Shown here: positions 8,462 to 51,924 of the stretch, in pieces
How positions within the stretch are numbered: position 1 is the stretch's first letter
Layout of the letters: each line of letters begins with the position of its first letter
NCBI RefSeq assembly: GCF_056746865.1
Contig: NZ_CM163382.1
Strand: one strand, 5' to 3'
DNA: 64,000 bases
Notes under the pieces: generated by a model
Seen by the model: the letters and a program-made list of their open reading frames with translations, nothing else
Databases searched by the model: none
What the model was told of the DNA's origin: nothing
Position numbers and translations under genes: made by a program

Positions 8462-8941
8462 GTAAGACAACCACGAAGGGTGTTGCTTTATAGCGTCTTC
8501 GATACCGGTATCGCCTTCGGTTGTTAGTGTGTATTAGATAAGCATGTTTTTCCGCCCGGAAATTTAAAGAGAGTGAATTATTCGACAGAAACGCTCACTT
8601 CTGGAAACGAACGACAAGCATATAACGTCCACCAAAGCCTCAACCAACACGCAAAACCCAGCCCCCAACAATCAACTTAAAAATCAATCGGATATTAAAA
8701 TCCCTTCCATATCAACTTCATCACCACTCTTTTTGCGCCTTCCCCTTCGCGCAAAAAATCAAAATCCTCAACAAACCCAATCACCTACCCCACCAATTAC
8801 AAGGACGCCAGCCAATCATGATTGGACGGTGCAAGGACAACACCAACAAAAACAGGAAGTTAGCAGTCTCAGCAAGACACCGACCAGACGGTGAGGAGAC
8901 ATAAAAGGATACGCAAAGGAGCCGCGGCTCCTGGTGATATG

Positions 8942-8965
8942 AAAGCCCACAGATGTGGGCTTTTT
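8942..8965. terminator. Rho-independent terminator-like hairpin immediately 3' of the autotransporter gene
   Basis: aaagcccac / gtgggcttt stem followed by a T-run on the + strand. Confidence 0.5.
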
Positions 8966-8974
8966 CGTTGATGG

Positions 8975-11900
8975 TCAGAACGACCAGTTCACACCAGCCA
9001 CCGCGTTCCACGGGGATTCCACACCGGCACCATGGCTATACCCCACCCCGAGATGTCCGCTTAACGTACTGCTGAATGAGGCTTTAATACCTGCCTGGTA
9101 TATTCCACGTCTGCCCGACAAATCATTGACGAAATTACCGTCATTATTCACCTTCACCCGGTTATCATCGACAAATTCTTTGCGCACAGCCGCCTTCAGC
9201 CACGGCTCAATTTCCATACCGTTCCCCAGACGCATGTTGTAACTCAGCGTTGCGCCCAGTTCACGATATATACTGCGGGTATCGACTGATTTCGATTCCA
9301 TGCCATTGGATAAATGATATTCGGGGTTATCAGCGGTGAACCCCGTTAACGATGCATACGGCGTCAGGTTCCAGTTACCATCCGTAAATCGCATCCCGGT
9401 TTCAATGTGACCGCCCAGCCCGTTGCTGCGATAACTGCCGTTGGCGGCTCCACCGCTGCTCATTTTACCGGCTACGTTACTTTCAAAGCGGTTCAGCTTC
9501 ACGATACCGTCCAGATAGAAACCACTTTCATGTTCCCAGCTGGCATAGCCCCCCAGAGAATAACTGCCCACACTGCCATGTCCTCCACGATCAAAACCAA
9601 TATGTGAATGGGAATAACCCATAAAAGCGCCCAGCGTCGCAATCCCCTCAGGAATATCATTACGGCTATCGATCCCCACCGTCATTCCGGTCAGCGTCTG
9701 CTCAAACCCGGCACCCGCATCGGTGGTGACATTATTACGGGTGTTATACGTCGTCCCCCAGACATTATTGTTGTGTGGACTCGCTTTCATTATGTTCAAC
9801 CGCTCGCGAATACTGTTTAGCTCAGCATCAAAGACCAACGGTAATGTTGCTGCCATATTGAGTACGGCTGCTGTAGAAGGCGTGATGCGATTCTCCGGGA
9901 CGGGTGTCGGCGTTGGAGCGGGAGTCGGGTCTGGTTTCGGATCCGGTTTTGGGTCTGGTTTTGGATCCGGTTTCGGATTTGGGTTGGGGTCCGGGTTGGG
10001 TTTGACATCATTGGTCAGGTTCCAGTTGCTGTTGCCGTCGCTTTTCAGGACATACTCATAGGTCCCAAGATCAACGAAACCGCCGGTATTACCCAGCGTA
10101 AACGAAGCATCCCCTCCCCCTGTTTTCACCAGCGTCATCGCGTCGTCAGACTGAGGGCTGACGCCGGTATCCTGAACAAAGATTTTAAAATTGCCAGTGG
10201 CGTTGTTGTTGACGACCAGTTGATCGCCCCGGGAGTCTGCAACGTTGGTATGCAGGTAGAAATTACCGCTGCCGGAAAGTTCACTGGTGGTCAGCGTATT
10301 GTAGATACCGTTAGTTGTGGCAGGCGCTGCTGTTTGTGCTGATAAATAAACATCACCGTCGTTGAGGAGTAAACTGTTTACTCTATATTCGCAGTTGCTG
10401 GTGCCTGCACAGGAATTATTGCTGTTAAGCCAGACACTGCCCCGACTGGCAGCCGTCAGGTCGGCAAGCGTCGTATCGACGCCATTTCCGATAGTTAATG
10501 TCGCGCTATCGGTAATCCGGACCACCCCTTCAAGTTTAACTGGCGTAACATTATCCCGTGGCGTCATTAACGACAGGCTTCCTGTCGCGCCACTGACCGA
10601 TGCATCCGCCAGCGTACCTGCGTAGACGATTGCCGTCCCGCCAGCGATCAGTAGATCTTCTGCCCGGGCCAGAGCCTGAAACTCATCTTTTGACCGACCG
10701 AGGGTATATTGCCCACCGGAATTAACCTTTGTGGCGAAGTCCTGACCCAGGTTTTGCATTGCCCCACCGTTGCCAACCGTGGAATCGCGAGCTTCGGTAC
10801 CTGCTAATACCAATAAATTACCGCCATTTTCCAGCAGCACATTGGTCGCTAAATTTCCGGCAATGGAAAAGGTGCCGTACTGGTGAGTACCGCTGATTTC
10901 AATACCGTTAGCCGTGCTCGTCTGGAGAGCGGCACCGCTGTTCTGGATGATATCTGTCGCTTTGCCATTATCGTTGACTGTCAGCGTACCGCCTTCATTA
11001 ATCGTTGTTTTTACTGCCTCACCGTTAGCCGAAACTGTTTGTATTCCGCCGTCGTTAATCGTTGTCTCATTCGCCACCCCCTCGACGATTTGTTCGCCGC
11101 CGGTGAGCGTCGTGCCTGTCGCAGTGGCTTTTGTTTTGACGATCTCCCGCCCGCCCGCATTGACCTGTGTTTTGGCGGAAGTGGTGTCTGACTCCACGGT
11201 TAACACGCCGCCATTTGCCAGCAGGATATTGTTCGCCGCATCCTGCTCAATGCTGAACGCGACGCCATCAGCGCGTGTCCCTGTGACCCGCGTCGCTCTG
11301 GTGGTTGCAACCAACGCGCCCTGGCTACTTTGCTGTATCCCCGTTGCGCTGCCTTTCTCCCGCACATCGAGAGTGCCGCCTTCATTAAGCACCGAGTTTT
11401 CAGCCAGACCGCCCTCATTAACTACCTGTGAACCGCCATTAATAATGGAACCTTCCGCTGTCCCGTTTACCATAATTTGTTGTAGGCCTGAGACGATATC
11501 GGTATTGATCGCCTTACCATAATTCTGAACGGTTTGCGTACCGCCATTGATGTGCGTTTTGTCTGTTGACCCACCATCAACAATTTGTTCACCACTTTCG
11601 ATATTTGCCTCAGTGGCTAAACCATATACCGTTTGCTTGCCACCTTTGATATTTGCTTTTTCAGAAGTGGCACTGGCATATATTGTTTGGGTACCAGCAC
11701 TATTAAGTACAGTACCAACATCTTTTCCATAAACATCCATTTTGCCGTTGGCATTAATAATCGTGTCAACTGCCCGGGAACCAGTGACGACTGTTAATGA
11801 GCCAGCGTTTTCCAGCACTACATTTTTAGCTTCTGAATTCCTGATGTAGAAAGCATCACCATAACTGTTGGTTCCTTCGATAAGTGTTCCGGAGGTCGTG

Positions 11901-13549
11901 GAAGCAATTAATGCGCCGCCGGATTGTTGCTCAACATGCTTAGCCTCACCACCGTCCTGAACCTCCAGAACGCCACCATTATTAAGTCTGGTGCTATCTG
12001 TTTTAGCCTCCTTCTGGACAATCAGCTTACCGCCAGCATCAATGGTAGTATTTTTCGCCGAGGTTTTAGCCATTACCGTCAGTTCGCCGGTATTTTCCAG
12101 CACAACATAATTAGCCTCTCCTCCGGTAATAGTGAAGTGAGAGAGCTTGTTGTATCCTTCGATATCAGTCCCTGCGCCCGTGTTGGCAACTAAAGCACTG
12201 CCCGTCTCCTGGTTAACCCCATGTGCAATACCGCCGGTATAGACAATCAGCGAGCCTCCGGCGCTAATATTGCTGCCAGTTGCCGTACCATCTTTCTCAA
12301 CAACCTGCCGGCTCCCAGAGGATATATTTGTCGTGTCAGCTTTCCCGCCGCTCTTGATATTTTGCGTTCCACTGTTGATATTGGTGCCCGTGGCAATACC
12401 ATGATTATTAATATTCTGTGTGCCACCATTAATTATGGTATTTGTCGCGTTTCCGGCAACATCCATAACGCCGCCATTATCTATTCGGGTCGCATCAGCT
12501 TTAGCATTCGTTAAAACTGACATTGTTCCTTTATCTTTAATAATCGTCTTATTTGCCGAACCATATGCGTTTATGTCTAAATGACCACCGTTTTCCAGCA
12601 ACACATTCTCTGCCACGTTATTGTGGATGGAGAATGCCCCTTCACTATTCGTACCGCTCACCGTCAAATCGTAAGTCGTTACTTTTAAAGCGGCTCCATC
12701 GTGCTGAGTAATATTAGTTGCCGTACCACCTCTAACATCAAGCACGCCGCCGGAATAAACTTCAATAACATCCGAGGAGCTCGTGTTATCAACAATTTGC
12801 GTACCACCAGAATAGATCTGCGTATTTTTTGCCGTTGACTTACTATTCAGAGACTGAGTTCCGCCTTCAATCGTCGTGTCCAGCGCACGGCTCTCATATA
12901 CTCTTTGCTCACCGCCATTTTTAATGGCGGTTGTTTCTACTGTGCTCTGTTCAACATACTGTCGCCCACCATTTATGGTTGTGTTCGTCGCCAGACTTCC
13001 TTGCGTGATGTCCTGATAACCAGACTTATTTATCGTCGTACCGTCAACATGCCCCTGAGTTGATACTGACTGGCCTCCACCATCAATGATTGTTCCATTT
13101 GCAGTCCCCCCCTCTATGCGTGAAGTACCGCCCTTAATTGTCGTGTCATTGCTGGTACCACCTTTATAAACATATTGATTGCCACTTTCGATTATCGTGC
13201 CAGTAGAAATTCCTCCGTACTCAATTGACTGTCTGCCTCCATTAATGGTTGTATTATTAGCTTGCCCGTTAATATCGGCATGGATTGATACTAGTTGCTC
13301 GCCACCAGTTTCAATAATACTACTATTAGATATCCCACCATAGACCTCCTGCCGGCCATGGTTGATAATATGTGTGTTATTTGTTGTACCTCGTTCATCT
13401 ACTCGTTGGTTGCCATCTACAGTCTCATCGTTTACCACACCAATAACATTAGTAGTGAAGGCCGCCATCCCGGGCTGGGCATATATTAAGGCAGATATCA
13501 ATAAGGAAAGTACTGAGCGGCGAAAATAATAGGGACTGGTCCTGTTCAT
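8975..13549 (-). CDS. ypjA: Autotransporter adhesin (type Va), YpjA-like
   Basis: Start placed at MNRTSPYYFRR (13549) with AGAGGA SD and extended signal peptide; repetitive passenger domain; Pro/Asp/Lys-rich linker; C-terminal beta-barrel ending ...GVNWSF. Confidence 0.85.
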   Translation of the reverse strand: MNRTSPYYFRRSVLSLLISALIYAQPGMAAFTTNVIGVVNDETVDGNQRVDERGTTNNTHIINHGRQEVYGGISNSSIIETGGEQLVSIHADINGQANNTTINGGRQSIEYGGISTGTIIESGNQYVYKGGTSNDTTIKGGTSRIEGGTANGTIIDGGGQSVSTQGHVDGTTINKSGYQDITQGSLATNTTINGGRQYVEQSTVETTAIKNGGEQRVYESRALDTTIEGGTQSLNSKSTAKNTQIYSGGTQIVDNTSSSDVIEVYSGGVLDVRGGTATNITQHDGAALKVTTYDLTVSGTNSEGAFSIHNNVAENVLLENGGHLDINAYGSANKTIIKDKGTMSVLTNAKADATRIDNGGVMDVAGNATNTIINGGTQNINNHGIATGTNINSGTQNIKSGGKADTTNISSGSRQVVEKDGTATGSNISAGGSLIVYTGGIAHGVNQETGSALVANTGAGTDIEGYNKLSHFTITGGEANYVVLENTGELTVMAKTSAKNTTIDAGGKLIVQKEAKTDSTRLNNGGVLEVQDGGEAKHVEQQSGGALIASTTSGTLIEGTNSYGDAFYIRNSEAKNVVLENAGSLTVVTGSRAVDTIINANGKMDVYGKDVGTVLNSAGTQTIYASATSEKANIKGGKQTVYGLATEANIESGEQIVDGGSTDKTHINGGTQTVQNYGKAINTDIVSGLQQIMVNGTAEGSIINGGSQVVNEGGLAENSVLNEGGTLDVREKGSATGIQQSSQGALVATTRATRVTGTRADGVAFSIEQDAANNILLANGGVLTVESDTTSAKTQVNAGGREIVKTKATATGTTLTGGEQIVEGVANETTINDGGIQTVSANGEAVKTTINEGGTLTVNDNGKATDIIQNSGAALQTSTANGIEISGTHQYGTFSIAGNLATNVLLENGGNLLVLAGTEARDSTVGNGGAMQNLGQDFATKVNSGGQYTLGRSKDEFQALARAEDLLIAGGTAIVYAGTLADASVSGATGSLSLMTPRDNVTPVKLEGVVRITDSATLTIGNGVDTTLADLTAASRGSVWLNSNNSCAGTSNCEYRVNSLLLNDGDVYLSAQTAAPATTNGIYNTLTTSELSGSGNFYLHTNVADSRGDQLVVNNNATGNFKIFVQDTGVSPQSDDAMTLVKTGGGDASFTLGNTGGFVDLGTYEYVLKSDGNSNWNLTNDVKPNPDPNPNPKPDPKPDPKPDPKPDPTPAPTPTPVPENRITPSTAAVLNMAATLPLVFDAELNSIRERLNIMKASPHNNNVWGTTYNTRNNVTTDAGAGFEQTLTGMTVGIDSRNDIPEGIATLGAFMGYSHSHIGFDRGGHGSVGSYSLGGYASWEHESGFYLDGIVKLNRFESNVAGKMSSGGAANGSYRSNGLGGHIETGMRFTDGNWNLTPYASLTGFTADNPEYHLSNGMESKSVDTRSIYRELGATLSYNMRLGNGMEIEPWLKAAVRKEFVDDNRVKVNNDGNFVNDLSGRRGIYQAGIKASFSSTLSGHLGVGYSHGAGVESPWNAVAGVNWSF

Positions 13550-13939
13550 AAATTTCATCCTCTGAAAAGTGAATACTGAGTAGCGTTTAAGCGACCTTAG
13601 CTTTGCTGCAACATCAGCCCACAGGCACCAGACCAGGGGATTCATCCTGAAGAGACAGCGCAAGTGTATTGTGTTCACCGCTCATCAAAGACATCATGAT
13701 GAAATGATGATATTCCGCATAAGAATGAGGCATTTTTTTAAGACATTGTGCTGAAGGATGATTGGATAAAAAAGTCAATCTTTTCAGGAAATACGGCGTA
13801 TTCTTTTCTTTCGACATTGAAGCCATCGGAAAAATAAAATGATTTACATAATCGTTTCTGATGAATATCTTCTGCTCACATAAAAATCACACAATAACAT
13901 TGAGATTGCAGATTGTTTTACTTTTACAGCTTTCGTCCC

Positions 13940-14215
13940 CTCATTGTTGGGCAAATATTGGTAGAGTCAGAGCACGAAAGTTAATACCACGTTCGCACAG
14001 CTCCTCCAACAGCACGGCAAGATGCCGCATACTGCGCCCCAGTAGGTTCAGTTTGCAGACAACCAGTGTGTCACCTACCGATAATGTCCTGAGCCGTTTG
14101 TTCAGTCCGGCCCTGCTGCCACGGTTTTACGTTGAAGTGGTAACCCTGAGCACGCAGTTCATCAGTCAGGCATGGTGCACCATAACGCTGTTGTTGCTGG
14201 GTAAGATCAAAAAAC
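13940..14215 (-). pseudogene. pinH: Serine DNA-invertase (Pin/Hin family) fragment, frameshifted remnant
   Basis: Minus-strand translation [37 protein letters not shown] matches the Hin/Gin catalytic segment GDTLVVWKLDRLGRS...ERGAHFHSLT; upstream frames are broken. Confidence 0.5.
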
Positions 14216-14482
14216 TTTCAGGCAGCTAAGGAAAGTTGAATCAGACATTAGATGAAATATTTCAACCAATTACAGCACCAATTTAAACTCAGTAAATCAC
14301 AGCGCAGATCAAGGGGTTACGTGAAAGCGTAGCCCCTTTTTCTTTGGTAGTAGCAGCAAAATGGTTGTAGTGTAAAAAATAATCCCGTTTAATCAATCAA
14401 TAATACATATTGTTTCAATCTACGTTATTATCTCTTTGTAAAACCTGCAGTTTATTTATCATTGAAAACTGCTTTTAGAACT

Positions 14483-15937
14483 TTATACAAGGGGACGATT
14501 CTCAATGGGACTATCCTCAGGGGAATTTTCCTCAGAGGAACTATCATCAAAGTCATCATCCATAGATGAAATACCATCGAATGGTGCCACGCCCGTGATT
14601 AGTTTTATTTTATTATTACGATCAGTCAAGACTCCATTTAAACCATTTTCGCTGACGGATTTTAATAATTTATCATAACTCTTATTGTCATCAGGCACAT
14701 TAAAAATACACGGAGTATCAACATCAAACAATGACGTTCCCCAGTTCACATATTGAATATCATAGTTACTGAAGTTCTGTCCAGAAAAGAAGCATCCCTT
14801 AAAATCCAATCCACGTAAATTATATAAACTACCCTCTTCTTTTGGGAGAGCAATTTTAATTCTGGCTATCTCCCAGACAAAATTGCCATTTTTGTATTTG
14901 AATACCGTTTCAAGCTCTCCTCCAGACAACTTGACTTCTGGAAATAATTTGAAATTAAACCCTACATTATTATGTGTCAACGTAGATGAACAAAAGATGG
15001 AAAAAGCTTGCAGTGCTGAATTATAGCTATCGATTTTATCTTGAGGCTGCGCTCTTGGTAAAAACTTATAGCAACACTCATAAAAATTAAGTAGAAACTC
15101 TGATGACCTTCCATTTTTATCAAATAATACCCGCTGAAAATGCTGCACAAACTTATTCGTTTTTTCTTGAATATCTATGGTGTGTTCCTTTGACTCTAAC
15201 AAAGATGAATCCTGTTGAAGTGCATTGCTCATCTGGTTGAGGAACAACTGCATTTCTTTCAACTTATCTCCATAGTGACCTTTAACTTGCTGAGAATTTT
15301 TAGTTACAGTTGAAACCTTATCTGTGTGGTTTTCATATAAATTATGTGATTCCATACAGTCATTTGGCGGCGTTTCTGAAATAACACTACGCGTTCTACC
15401 TGGCTGAAGTGAAGCAACATGAAAATCACTTTTTCTTATATTGCCGAATAGGGTCTGTTCATTTCTCTTAGCGCATTCAATAAACTGATCAACATTATTT
15501 TTATTAGATGACAGGTTAATTTCAGAAACCGCATTTTCTTTGTTCTCCAGCTTTAGTTTAACGAGAAGGTCTTCCCACACCGTTTTTTTTAAAAATACTA
15601 CGTCAGGCTCACCATCAGCAACTAACTCTTGATTATTATCAAAGTGTACGTTGTATACTTTTAATTTATTTTCATTAGCATCATATTTAATACGTTTTAA
15701 TTGTTCTCCGGCTCCCATAATGACAAAAGCATTGCCTTCATGATATTTACATTCAGACATCATTTTTTGTAAAATTTCAAGAGCACCGTTATACGTCCCT
15801 GAGGCAGCTTCTTTACAAATTAATTTTATAATACTATAAGCTAGTAACTCCATGGATTTAGAAGATTTTCTTTCATTACAATTTCCACTATTTATAAATG
15901 TGCTAGTGTTAATTTCGTTGCTTTTACTAACTAACAT
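14483..15937 (-). CDS. Hypothetical low-GC protein with pentapeptide-repeat-like C-terminal region and acidic tail; occupies the ypjB/ypjC position next to ileY
   Basis: 484-aa ORF, strongly AT-rich; C-terminal segment LRGLDFKGCFFSGQNFSNYDIQYVNW resembles pentapeptide repeats. Confidence 0.6.
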   Translation of the reverse strand: MLVSKSNEINTSTFINSGNCNERKSSKSMELLAYSIIKLICKEAASGTYNGALEILQKMMSECKYHEGNAFVIMGAGEQLKRIKYDANENKLKVYNVHFDNNQELVADGEPDVVFLKKTVWEDLLVKLKLENKENAVSEINLSSNKNNVDQFIECAKRNEQTLFGNIRKSDFHVASLQPGRTRSVISETPPNDCMESHNLYENHTDKVSTVTKNSQQVKGHYGDKLKEMQLFLNQMSNALQQDSSLLESKEHTIDIQEKTNKFVQHFQRVLFDKNGRSSEFLLNFYECCYKFLPRAQPQDKIDSYNSALQAFSIFCSSTLTHNNVGFNFKLFPEVKLSGGELETVFKYKNGNFVWEIARIKIALPKEEGSLYNLRGLDFKGCFFSGQNFSNYDIQYVNWGTSLFDVDTPCIFNVPDDNKSYDKLLKSVSENGLNGVLTDRNNKIKLITGVAPFDGISSMDDDFDDSSSEENSPEDSPIENRPLV

Positions 15938-16693
15938 TGTCTTTTCCTCAGTTAATGTCTACATGGCTATTTTTAATGTTATTATTGTTTGTCACTATAA
16001 AAAATCGCTCATTTGAGACAATTGCTGGCATTAACAGCTTCATATGCTATACATGGTACTTTTAATTAATTTAGCACAAGAATGTTAAATTTAATAAGCA
16101 AAAGGTTATTTCACTGTATGATAAAAACCACCCGTTATAATTTATTCGTGAGAATCGTTTTTTGAGTGTTAGAAATTTATATCTAAATAGCGTTGATTAA
16201 TGACCAAAGCCAGACTCCTGTAATGCTCACAAGACTCTTCTGCATTCGACGGCGGTTCTAGTCAGTAGTAGATGTTTAAGGCGTGGCAGAGACATTTCAT
16301 CCTTACTCTACAGCATTGGTCCACATACAAATCGTGGTTGTGACACTTCACTTATCATCAGTGAGCGAACAGAGAATAGTTCAGTGATTTGAGTAATTAA
16401 CCTGATTAAATGAAGAGGCATGATAAATGATAATACTCTGGCTTTATCGTTAATTACTTAATTCCACATGTAAGCAATTTGCCCGCTTGGCATAGCGGGC
16501 ATTTTTTCCAGGTACTTTTGAATGAGTACTGATGGATAAATACATTGCAGTGGCGTGCCACGTACCAAAACACCAGCCCTCATTCGAAACTACCTACCGC
16601 ACTGCTTCTTTAAAATGGCGTTAGTCGTGAAATATTGACCGCCATCGAGTCCCCCTTGTAACCTTAACTCTTCCTGATACGTGAATAATGATT

Positions 16694-16770
16694 TGGTGGC
16701 CCTTGCTGGACTTGAACCAGCGACCGGACGATTATGAGTCGTCTGCTCTAACCACTGAGCTAAAGGGCCT
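16694..16770 (-). tRNA. ileY: tRNA-Ile (anticodon CAU, lysidine-type; ileY-like)
   Basis: Reverse complement GGCCCTTTAGCTCAGTGGTTAGAGCAGACGACTCATAATCGTCCGGTCGCTGGTTCAAGTCCAGCAAGGGCCACCA closely matches K-12 ileX/ileY. Confidence 0.85.
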
Positions 16771-17328
16771 TGAGTATGCAATAACAATACTTATATACCA
16801 CGCAATAAACATGATGATCTTATGATGTAAATAACAGATTTTTATACGTTCTCATTCATCCTGGGTCGTCATTACCTGCGACATAAAACCCGACACCGAT
16901 TCCATTCACAAAGTCGATACTCTCAGTCAACAAGCAAATGCTAATACTTAGCACTATTTATAGTTACCATCGATTCAATGATAGTTTGTAATGATTTTGT
17001 ATCTAATAATATAACTTTATTACATTAACTGAAGAGTTTTCGCATCATTATGATATCTGTTACTTTTCACCCCATAAAAATAAACTTCATATAGCAATAT
17101 ATTCTTTCATAGATCTTATTCTGCTAATCATTAGTTTCGTATGAGCGATTTTTGACAGTTGCCTCTCCAGACCACATCGATAATTAAAAAAACAGATTTA
17201 AGCATTATCCTTTTCCATATAAATATTGGATAAAAGTAGGACATCTGTTTGCAATTACTTTCACAACAATTAAACATTTTTATGTTTCCGTATACACCAT
17301 ATTACTCTACCATTAGAGGAACTTTATT

Positions 17329-50927: not shown

Positions 50928-51004
50928 TGGTGCATCCGGGAGGATTCGAACCTCCGACCGCTCGGTTCGTAGCCGAGTACTCTATCCAGCTGAGCTACGG
51001 ATGC
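50928..51004 (-). tRNA. argQ: tRNA-Arg (anticodon ACG), copy 1
   Basis: Reverse complement GCATCCGTAGCTCAGCTGGATAGAGTACTCGGCTACGAACCGAGCGGTCGGAGGTTCGAATCCTCCCGGATGCACCA. Confidence 0.9.
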
Positions 51005-51202
51005 ATCGGGAAAATTTATTTTACTGCTGATATTGATATCGCTACTAAAGCCATATCAAGTAAGAGATGGTGCATCCGGGAGGATTACTCGCCTTGCGGC
51101 TCGCCCTTCGGGCCGTTGCTAAAGCAACGTTATCCTTCCTGGTGCCTGCGGTTAATTCCGCTACCTCTTCGATATCTTCATTGCTGAAGATTTCGGAGAA
51201 TA

Positions 51203-51279
51203 TGGTGCATCCGGGAGGATTCGAACCTCCGACCGCTCGGTTCGTAGCCGAGTACTCTATCCAGCTGAGCTACGGATGC
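51203..51279 (-). tRNA. argZ: tRNA-Arg (ACG), copy 2
   Basis: Identical 77-nt tRNA sequence. Confidence 0.9.
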
Positions 51280-51476
51280 ATCGGGAAATTTATTTTACTG
51301 CTGATATTGATACCGCTACTAAAGCCATATCAAGTAAGAGATGGTGCATCCGGGAGGATTACTCGCCTTGCGGCTCGCCCTTCGGGCCGTTGCTAAAGCA
51401 ACGTTATCCTCCCTGGTGCCTGCGGTTATTACCGCCACCTCTTCCATACCTTCATCGCTAAAGGTTACGGAGAATA

Positions 51477-51553
51477 TGGTGCATCCGGGAGGATTCGAAC
51501 CTCCGACCGCTCGGTTCGTAGCCGAGTACTCTATCCAGCTGAGCTACGGATGC
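51477..51553 (-). tRNA. argY: tRNA-Arg (ACG), copy 3
   Basis: Identical 77-nt tRNA sequence. Confidence 0.9.
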
Positions 51554-51751
51554 ATCGGGAAACTTACTTTACTGCAGATTTTTTGATACCGCTACTAAAG
51601 CCGTATCAAGTAAGAGATGGTGCATCCGGGAGGATTACTCGCCTTGCGGCTCGCCCTTCGGGCCGTTGCTAAAGCAACGTTATCCTCCCTGGTGCCTGCG
51701 GTTATTACCGCCACCTCTTCTATACCTTCATCGCTGAAAGTACGTAGAATA

Positions 51752-51828
51752 TGGTGCATCCGGGAGGATTCGAACCTCCGACCGCTCGGTTCGTAGCCGA
51801 GTACTCTATCCAGCTGAGCTACGGATGC
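51752..51828 (-). tRNA. argV: tRNA-Arg (ACG), copy 4
   Basis: Identical 77-nt tRNA sequence. Confidence 0.9.
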
Positions 51829-51831
51829 AAA

Positions 51832-51924
51832 TGGCGGTGAGGCGGGGATTCGAACCCCGGATGCAGCTTTTGACCGCATACTCCCTTAGCAGGGGAGCGC
51901 CTTCAGCCTCTCGGCCACCTCACC
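51832..51924 (-). tRNA. serV: tRNA-Ser (anticodon GCU)
   Basis: Reverse complement GGTGAGGTGGCCGAGAGGCTGAAGGCGCTCCCCTGCTAAGGGAGTATGCGGTCAAAAGCTGCATCCGGGGTTCGAATCCCCGCCTCACCGCCA. Confidence 0.9.

Follow-up and report, generated by a model that had tools for sequence, protein, structure and literature searches.

The 64-kb window analysed here is a stretch of Escherichia coli chromosome (contig NZ_CM163382.1), and all coordinates given below refer to its full length. Within it, the interval 13940-16770 carries a remnant of a phage-type DNA invertase gene (pinH'), the 484-aa gene ypjCB, a conserved non-coding block and the isoleucine tRNA gene ileY. The autotransporter gene ypjA lies to the left of this interval and ygaQ to the right, followed by glaH, lhgO, gabD and gabT (Table 1). 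A reading of the sequence alone had taken the locus for an old island targeted to ileY, whose integrase had since been lost. The components that it described, namely ileY, a low-GC 484-aa open reading frame (ORF), a broken invertase and ypjA, are all present, as confirmed by ARAGORN, the ORF list and Pfam. Its view of the DNA as accessory, old, devoid of an integrase and carrying a relic of a mobile element also holds, but the targeting of ileY does not. We instead regard the locus, with a probability of about 0.75, as an old composite accessory segment lying between the tmRNA gene (ssrA) and glaH, which was not inserted at ileY.

The variable segment and its boundaries

The frequency of the segment was estimated by searching 5,426 complete E. 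coli genomes with 13600-17400 (megablast). At least 80% of this query is present in 2,923 of them, and the flank of ileY (16395-16693) was found in 3,100 genomes, once in each; carriage is about 54-57%. Empty sites were sought with a query joining smpB-ssrA to glaH, and the two genes lie about 680 nt apart in 712 genomes. Comparison with one strain without ypjA..ygaQ, APEC O2-211, defines the edges of the variable unit. Identity to the carrier ends just before the stop codon of ypjA and restarts about 135 nt past ygaQ. On the left side, 8812-8965 matches the sequence directly after ssrA in APEC O2-211 at 89% identity, and on the right side, positions 3100-3500 of that strain match window 19718-20119 at 93%. 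This places the variable unit at 8966-19717, with ypjA, pinH', ypjCB, ileY and ygaQ inside it. Where carriers have these genes, APEC O2-211 has a unique 333-nt filler showing no similarity to the segment. The same filler is present in 1,104 genomes, among them the phylogroup B2 strains UTI89, JJ1886 and an ST95 isolate. Roughly 1,200 genomes have neither the ileY flank nor the filler; published examples of this third state are the separate deletions mediated by insertion sequences (IS) in strains B and W (PMC3032704), and strain 20AR0354, described below with its prophage remnant, was a further example inspected. The segment is accessory DNA and is acquired or lost as a whole, ileY included.

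Four grounds weigh against ileY as the integration site. First, the 3' end of ileY, which a direct repeat should have echoed at the far side of an island, has no second copy in the 64 kb at up to two mismatches for a 16-mer or up to three for a 25-mer, nor was a relevant repeat family found there. An ancient attachment (att) repeat could have decayed past detection. Second, the variable unit encloses the tRNA gene, which is not at its edge as the sequence-only reading implied. Third, homology to E. albertii passes ileY and reaches about 16388, roughly 300 nt past the 3' end of the tRNA; a tRNA-directed integrase would put the junction inside the tRNA gene. Fourth, the sole recombinase similarity between ileY and ypjA is to a serine invertase, and no tyrosine integrase or remnant of one was found in that interval. 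Phage tail-fibre-type invertases do not integrate islands. In AF206, a near-identical genome, a truncated tyrosine recombinase is annotated in RefSeq on the left side of ypjA; it is part of the ssrA-linked island and lies some 10 kb away from ileY. Among the usual attributes of integrase-borne islands, the segment has atypical composition and variable presence, but no tRNA junction, attR or integrase was found for it. Moreover, the 3' ends of ssrA and ileY face each other across the interval, and the segment is equally "downstream" of ssrA.

The ssrA gene is visibly in use as an integration site here. A degenerate copy of its 3' end, read directly in the sequence at about 8795-8830, is the right end of the ssrA-integrated island of the window strain, and in AF206 an integrase gene and an island of about 32 kb follow ssrA.

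Gene content and composition

Table 1. Coordinates of features in and around the variable segment
Feature	Position in window	Strand	Description
Left anchor	8812..8965		154-nt conserved stretch after ssrA; hairpin/T-run just ahead of the ypjA stop codon
ypjA	8975-13549	-	Adhesin-like autotransporter (YpjA/EhaD), 49.5% GC; from the ORF list and RefSeq annotation of collinear loci
39-aa hypothetical ORF and ypjA leader	13614-13733	-	RefSeq protein WP_001120794.1 at the same position
pinH' invertase remnant	about 13943-14217	-	Gin/Pin-type serine DNA invertase, two frames
Orphan intrinsic-terminator-like hairpin	14311-14345	+	12-bp stem then T-run; between pinH' and the 3' end of ypjCB
ypjCB, intact, 484 aa	14483-15937	-	DUF5507 + DUF5508; NCBIfam NF050179
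Conserved non-coding block	16388-16600	+	Common to E. coli and E. albertii; holds the candidate small RNA, 16441-16508
ileY, tRNA-Ile2, CAU anticodon	16694-16769	-	ARAGORN, Rfam, RefSeq
ygaQ-type alpha-amylase-family gene, intact, 750 aa	17329-19581	+	Pfam Alpha-amylase_C; 37.7% GC
Right anchor, glaH upstream region	19718..19916		Homology to genomes without ypjA..ygaQ restarts here

The GC content is 0.29-0.40 across about 14250-19800, on both sides of ileY, compared with 0.53-0.60 in the flanking core from glaH onward. It is uneven inside the segment, ypjCB having 34% against the much higher value of ypjA. Gene for gene, the locus is collinear with that of K-12. RefSeq lists for a K-12 derivative ypjA, the 39-aa ORF, a partial "recombinase family protein", ypjCB, tRNA-Ile, ygaQ, glaH, lhgO and gabD, in that order, and six more genomes are annotated likewise. 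The spacer between ypjCB and ileY is 756 nt, the same as the K-12 spacing of about 750 nt. The 484-aa protein, for which the sequence-only reading could confirm no K-12 counterpart, has one in the pseudogene ypjCB (ypjC plus ypjB). That reading had also contrasted an island with a locus that is invariant across Escherichia and equal to K-12; the match with K-12 is complete in gene content, but the segment is not invariant. The locus is an already known and annotated K-12-type segment, ypjA-pinH remnant-ypjCB-ileY-ygaQ, and largely ordinary. By itself it adds little: variation at ileY and in the ssrA-glaH interval is known already, and the genes belong to the standard K-12 annotation.

ARAGORN calls a single tRNA with a CAU anticodon at the position of ileY and labels it tRNA-Met; the Rfam tRNA model scores 73.7 bits, and RefSeq has tRNA-Ile at this position in every E. 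coli genome inspected. The gene is identified as the tRNA-Ile2 gene ileY, the CAU of which would be read as AUA after predicted lysidine modification. It is identical to K-12 ileY, at the same locus, at 72 of 76 positions, and the differences include a compensatory change from G28-C42 in K-12 to A28-U42 in the window. Unusually for a tRNA gene, ileY varies within E. coli: in the anticodon stem, a compensatory series at pair 28-42 comprises G-C, G-U and A-U, with an A/C mismatch in strain 103, and pair 27-43 is G-U or G-C. Per 1000 codons, AUA occurs 28 times in ygaQ, 12 times in ypjCB and 11 times in ypjA, compared with 0-7 times in core genes. Expressed as the share of isoleucine codons, the values are 33%, 24% and 18%, respectively, and 0-11% in core genes. 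Because ygaQ, and to a lesser extent ypjCB and ypjA, use AUA far above the flanking core genes, the tRNA may be part of the cargo, suiting its AT-rich neighbours.

The ileY-ygaQ module in E. coli and E. albertii

The order in E. albertii is ssrA - ykgR/ykgM/ykgO - ileY - ygaQ homologue - glaH, without ypjA-pinH'-ypjCB. The product of the window ygaQ matches Pfam Alpha-amylase_C with 28 bits, and the Alpha-amylase catalytic domain reaches 21.4 bits, just under its cut-off of 22. Its E. albertii homologue (locus 10001-12217) is 59% identical at the protein level, with about 2.2 synonymous substitutions per synonymous site (dS). Between the same two species, dS is 0.18-0.35 for glaH, lhgO, gabD and gabT, and ileY is identical at 69 of 76 positions. 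Since dS is saturated in ygaQ and low in the core genes, the two versions of ygaQ diverged well before the species did. Thus, E. coli and E. albertii have deeply diverged versions of one module at one site, which is not simple vertical descent.

This divergence makes E. albertii unusable for telling loss of the segment from original absence in filler-carrying strains, and it lends some weight to another history. The filler strains may represent the ancestral empty site, ypjA..ygaQ having been acquired once by the ancestor of the other lineages, and E. albertii having acquired a relative of the module independently at the same hot spot. Both the pre-species divergence of ygaQ and the dissimilarity between the 333-nt filler and the segment are consistent with such a scenario. 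However, for two species to have gained related modules independently, at one position and in one orientation, is less parsimonious than retention with replacement, and E. albertii also lacks the filler. We consider this history possible, but doubtful.

A candidate small RNA in the conserved non-coding block

Conservation between E. coli and E. albertii is strongly peaked in the spacer between ypjCB and ileY. A 68-nt block (16441-16508, plus strand) is identical at 67 of 68 positions, whereas the identity is 0.81 over 16509-16600 and drops to 0.43 in each of the outer flanks, 16300-16387 and 16601-16693. By comparison, ileY itself matches at 69 of 76 positions, and ygaQ is saturated at synonymous sites. 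An invariant ATGATAAT (16427-16434) stands a few bases ahead of the 68-nt block, and the block ends in a plus-strand hairpin followed by a T-run, a terminator at 16480-16508. An 11-bp inverted repeat, TTTTGAATGAG ... CTCATTCGAAA, is invariant within the adjoining 16509-16600; its arms, at about 16516-16526 and 16579-16589, are separated by about 50 nt. The fold z-score is -2.3 for 16509-16600 and only -1.8 for the 68-nt candidate.

This layout of promoter-like element, conserved body and terminator tentatively suggests that the 68-nt block is an unannotated small RNA (sRNA) gene, travelling with the ileY-ygaQ module. We present it as a lead. No Rfam family matches the block, even at E = 1, RefSeq has no annotated feature at its position in any E. 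coli genome, no plausible ORF lies in it, and no sigma-70 promoter was called for it by a simple scan. The terminator stem has a C/A mismatch in about half of the E. coli alleles, including that of K-12. A metagenome scan with a 21-mer returned 72 loci, all from E. coli or E. albertii; because the block is confined to these two species, no covariation test is possible. If the candidate is real, the 68-nt block, and not an island, would be the most strongly selected element within 13940-16770. Missing from both Rfam and RefSeq, it would be a cheap lead to test.

Two ORFs overlapping this region were considered and rejected as genes. The minus-strand 41-aa ORF at 16458-16583 is open in both species, but 10 of its 41 residues differ and its conserved C-terminal part overlaps the hairpin block. 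The plus-strand 30-aa ORF at 16533-16625 has lost its ATG in the O157-type allele.

Age and decay of the segment

Unless E. albertii is named, dS and the ratio of nonsynonymous to synonymous rates (dN/dS) are from comparisons between E. coli lineages. The dS values are 0.14-0.18 for ypjCB, 0.13-0.15 for ypjA and about 0.15 for ygaQ, equal to the 0.10-0.23 of glaH and lhgO. Hence, the segment was inherited together with its flanks since before the carrier lineages split, and it predates the split of the E. coli lineages that carry it. Constraint differs greatly between genes. The dN/dS is 0.01-0.09 for glaH and lhgO, 0.10-0.26 for ygaQ, 0.20-0.35 for ypjA and 0.73-1.02 for ypjCB.

Intactness was counted in a convenience sample made up of the window, genome loci and 72 metagenome contigs. 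Only 20 of 61 complete ypjCB loci are intact in this sample, with no fewer than 10 different lesions among the other 41; for ygaQ, 12 of 43 loci are intact and 31 disrupted. Three inspected genomes have ypjCB or ypjA broken by IS elements, with IS1 in ypjCB of AF206 and an IS in ypjA of two strains. The genes of the segment are being lost piecemeal, via nonsense mutations, frameshifts and IS insertions.

YpjCB, an orphan protein of E. coli

The ypjCB gene has 34.2% GC, and 0.295 at third codon positions (GC3). The first 28 residues of its product are rich in Ser and Asn, and the C-terminal tail is Ser-rich and acidic, as had been noticed in the translation, ending in ...MDDDFDDSSSEENSPEDSPIENRPLV. 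A domain search matched the whole protein (residues 1-484) to NCBIfam NF050179, "Ecoli_YpjCB", with 930.7 bits against a cut-off of 650. Two Pfam families also score above their curated cut-offs, PF17612 (DUF5507, 253 bits, residues 1-160) and PF17621 (DUF5508, 453 bits, residues 234-484). In K-12 terms, DUF5507 is the fragment YpjC and DUF5508 the fragment YpjB, each one half of a single orphan protein. The description of K-12 YpjC as "18 kDa" (PMC3646849) agrees with a K-12-type stop after codon 160.

Seven pentads can be recognized by eye at residues 371-405 (YNLRG LDFKG CFFSG QNFSN YDIQY VNWGT SLFDV). The pentapeptide-repeat-like C-terminus described by the sequence-only reading is real in this respect but remains below the Pfam threshold: PF00805 scores 14.6 bits (cut-off 20.2, E = 0.024) over residues 373-391 only, and a scan of the whole protein gave no match. 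YpjCB is not filed in that family, and its assignment there was rejected.

Relatives of YpjCB were found only in E. coli/Shigella. A word-indexed search of 5.8 billion proteins gave 426 matches; the named ones in the best 120 are all from E. coli/Shigella, at 77-95% identity. Profile search of 1.84 billion cluster representatives gave one full-length cluster, E. coli fragments and two large proteins. The latter, one with repeated MBG_2 adhesin domains (about 32% identity per repeat) and one with a chain of GFO/IDH/MocA oxidoreductase domains, were rejected as motif-level or spurious similarities. When one genome per prokaryotic species was scanned, a single locus was found, in a "Planococcaceae" metagenome-assembled genome. 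This 2.8-kb contig (DEQI01000374.1, Planococcaceae bacterium UBA3370) is 100% identical to K-12 ypjCB-ileY DNA and represents contamination. PDB sequences gave no match better than E = 1, and PADLOC gave none at all. YpjCB appears to be restricted to E. coli/Shigella in the databases searched, a fast-evolving orphan under weak purifying selection. Separately, an internal piece of ypjCB is present on the 245-kb E. coli plasmid NZ_MN732922.1, where 128163-128520 matches window 14974-15436 at about 90% identity. Of the top "plasmid" matches, three are chromosome-sized PLSDB records.

Constraint is distributed unevenly along the protein. Among five ungapped 484-aa alleles, the ratio of nonsynonymous to synonymous polymorphism (pN/pS) is 0.66 overall, 0.91 in the first 28 residues and 0.20 in residues 371-405, with 0.65-0.9 outside this pentapeptide-like turn. 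A larger allele set has 6 variable amino-acid columns in residues 371-405 where 17 are expected (p = 0.0016). Under neutral random substitution with 155-170 changes, the ORF stays open with a probability of about 0.001 (about 0.1% of trials), a value conditioned on alleles picked for being intact. The pN/pS pattern, the constrained residues 371-405 and the retention of the ORF together suggest that YpjCB was functional over most of its history, weakly constrained except for one core, and is now dispensable in most strains. The protein made up of DUF5507 and DUF5508 is intact in a minority of strains.

Published data bear on the regulation and role of the gene. Binding sites of H-NS-associated RNA polymerase have been mapped in both the ypjC-ileY and ileY-ygaQ spacers (PMC3946193), and Hha binds near ileY and ypjC, its induction raising ypjC transcription (PMC2408971). 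Deleting ypjC in K-12 had a modest effect on biofilm colonisation, and in strain 55989 the authors were unable to make the mutant (PMC3646849). As a working guess, YpjCB would be a dispensable accessory protein, silenced by H-NS/Hha and acting outside core physiology, perhaps secreted or of an interaction type, which was kept in some lineages and lost in most.

Alternatively, YpjCB could be functional and evolve fast as a secreted or effector-like protein, perhaps a type III secretion substrate, its divergence being due to diversifying selection and not to decay. The improbable openness of the ORF, the uneven constraint centred on residues 371-405, the Ser/Asn-rich N-terminus, the acidic tail and the biofilm data would all fit this idea. 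Yet pN/pS exceeds 1 in no region, two thirds of the sampled loci are disrupted by many independent lesions, no similarity to any effector or solved structure was detected and the pentapeptide match is below threshold. The K-12 phenotype, moreover, was obtained from an allele that is already a pseudogene. We therefore consider an effector-like YpjCB improbable, and as a lead it is a weaker second to the candidate sRNA.

The pinH' invertase remnant and its surroundings

The Pin/Hin-type invertase fragment with broken frames was confirmed by similarity to Pfam Resolvase and to Gin, in two frames containing stops. Jointly, these frames equal residues 8-100 of a serine invertase, about 90 codons being left. 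PF00239 matches with 35.4 bits (cut-off 23.3) at profile positions 46-100 only. The best solved relative is the Gin DNA invertase (52 bits, Gin residues 40-93), compared with 13-16 bits for the gamma-delta and Tn3 resolvases. An intact catalytic N-terminus and the C-terminal DNA-binding (helix-turn-helix) domain are missing, and nothing remains past the equivalent of residue 100; pinH' is incapable of activity. It is a partial pseudogene in all genomes seen in RefSeq. At the DNA level, pinH' is the only part of 13600-16693 with phage relatives, being 77-85% identical to invertase genes of P2-like/Fels-2-type phages, and in one inspected phage record the invertase gene adjoins tail-fibre genes. 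These observations suggest that pinH' is the last trace of a myovirus (P2/Fels-2-like) prophage.

To the right of pinH', the orphan terminator listed in Table 1 has no plus-strand gene upstream of it, and may be left from lost phage genes beside the invertase. On the other side, 13600-13928, comprising the ypjA leader and the 39-aa ORF, is 84-87% identical to the ymgJ region found elsewhere in nearly all E. coli chromosomes; a ymgJ-like match is also present on some large plasmids. The ypjA leader and the ymgJ region appear to be paralogous.

Other features of the window

The first part of the window, 1-8811, is the distal part of the ssrA-linked island. It contains ORFs with Pfam matches, for a RibD_C/DHFR-family protein (1083-1622) and a CBS-domain protein that RefSeq labels as anti-phage (3197-4294), as well as an IS3-family element with an ALIL frameshift pseudoknot and inverted repeats at 4887-4911 and 6172-6196. 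The truncated tyrosine recombinase of AF206 adjoins the IS, and the corresponding window ORF (5961-6641) has no Pfam match. Further along the window, 50928-51924 (minus strand) carries four tRNA-Arg(ACG) genes and one tRNA-Ser(GCT) gene, which look like an ordinary E. coli cluster; an overlapping plus-strand call of tRNA-Arg(TCG) looks like an artefact.

Origin of the segment

We propose that the arrangement ssrA / ypjA - pinH' - ypjCB - conserved non-coding block - ileY - ygaQ / glaH has two parts with separate histories. The ypjA-pinH'-ypjCB part would have been built up between ssrA and the flank of ileY by events at the hot spot formed by ssrA, among them probably the arrival of a P2/Fels-2-like prophage that left just the invertase fragment. 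We count in favour of a prophage origin the strain 20AR0354, in which a P2-like prophage remnant spans from ssrA to 46 nt short of ileY. The other part, ileY with the conserved block and ygaQ, would be a separate, deeply diverged module with its own AUA-decoding tRNA, known in two versions, one in E. coli and one in E. albertii.

Several points weigh against this composite origin. No att repeat or integrase was found tying the ypjA-ypjCB part to ssrA either. The difference in GC content between ypjA (49.5%) and ypjCB (34%) may mean that ypjA is older or of other origin. The intactness census includes related strains, and the ORF-retention test started from selected alleles. The role of ileY as a cargo tRNA is deduced from codon counts alone. 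The AlphaFold2 model of YpjCB from 12 alleles (mean pLDDT, the predicted local distance difference test, 37.7; pTM, the predicted template modelling score, 0.29) is unusable and gives no structural support to functional guesses. Finally, the filler-carrying strains may have lost the segment or may lack it primarily, and the E. albertii version is too diverged for a simple outgroup.

That ypjCB, pinH' and ypjA are instead the rest of one island integrated site-specifically in the 3' end of ileY, with its integrase and att repeats lost, is very unlikely: low GC, variable presence, the absence of the ypjA-ypjCB part from an E. albertii that retains ileY-ygaQ, and the use of ileY by other islands (see below) would agree with it, but the tRNA 3' end is not repeated in the window, the sequence common with E. 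albertii extends beyond it, the E. coli indel unit takes in ileY and ygaQ, the lone recombinase relic, some 2.5 kb away from the tRNA, is an invertase, GC is heterogeneous and the ypjCB-ileY spacing is that of K-12.

Comparison with known systems

Like the Gin, Pin, Hin and Cin invertases of P2-, Mu-, P1- and e14-type phages, pinH' has part of the catalytic domain. Unlike them, it is split into two frames and has no neighbouring tail-fibre genes, and no crossover site matching AAACCNNGGTTT, which we take to be the core motif of gix/hix, was found near it. YpjCB presumably resembles the pentapeptide-repeat type III effectors, such as Salmonella PipB/PipB2 and E. coli EspX, in its short run of A(D/N)LXX-like pentads, its low GC and its Ser/Asn-rich N-terminus. 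It differs from them in having only seven pentads, below the Pfam threshold, and no relative found beyond E. coli/Shigella.

The closest known system is the ypjA-pinH-ypjB/ypjC-ileY-ygaQ-glaH(csiD) locus of K-12 MG1655, with which the window shares gene content, order, orientation and spacing. The two differ in the state of their genes: ypjCB and ygaQ are intact in the window, whereas both are pseudogenes in K-12, where ygaQ carries stops and ypjCB is interrupted by a stop after codon 160 and has a deletion of 105 nt. The nucleotide identity between the two ypjCB alleles is only 84-92%. The ssrA-ypjA interval also differs, being occupied by CP4-57 prophage genes in K-12 and by a different island in the window strain.

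Finally, ileY is a genuine integration site, since ter-operon islands use this tRNA, located between ypjC and ygaQ, as their insertion site (PMC8193136). The window strain has no insertion at ileY. Its segment resembles such tRNA-targeted islands in its low GC, its variable presence between strains and its position 3' of a tRNA gene, and differs from them in having neither att repeat nor integrase, a junction away from the tRNA and the tRNA inside the unit. The locus is thus a worked example of how low-GC DNA next to a tRNA gene does not alone prove tRNA-targeted integration.

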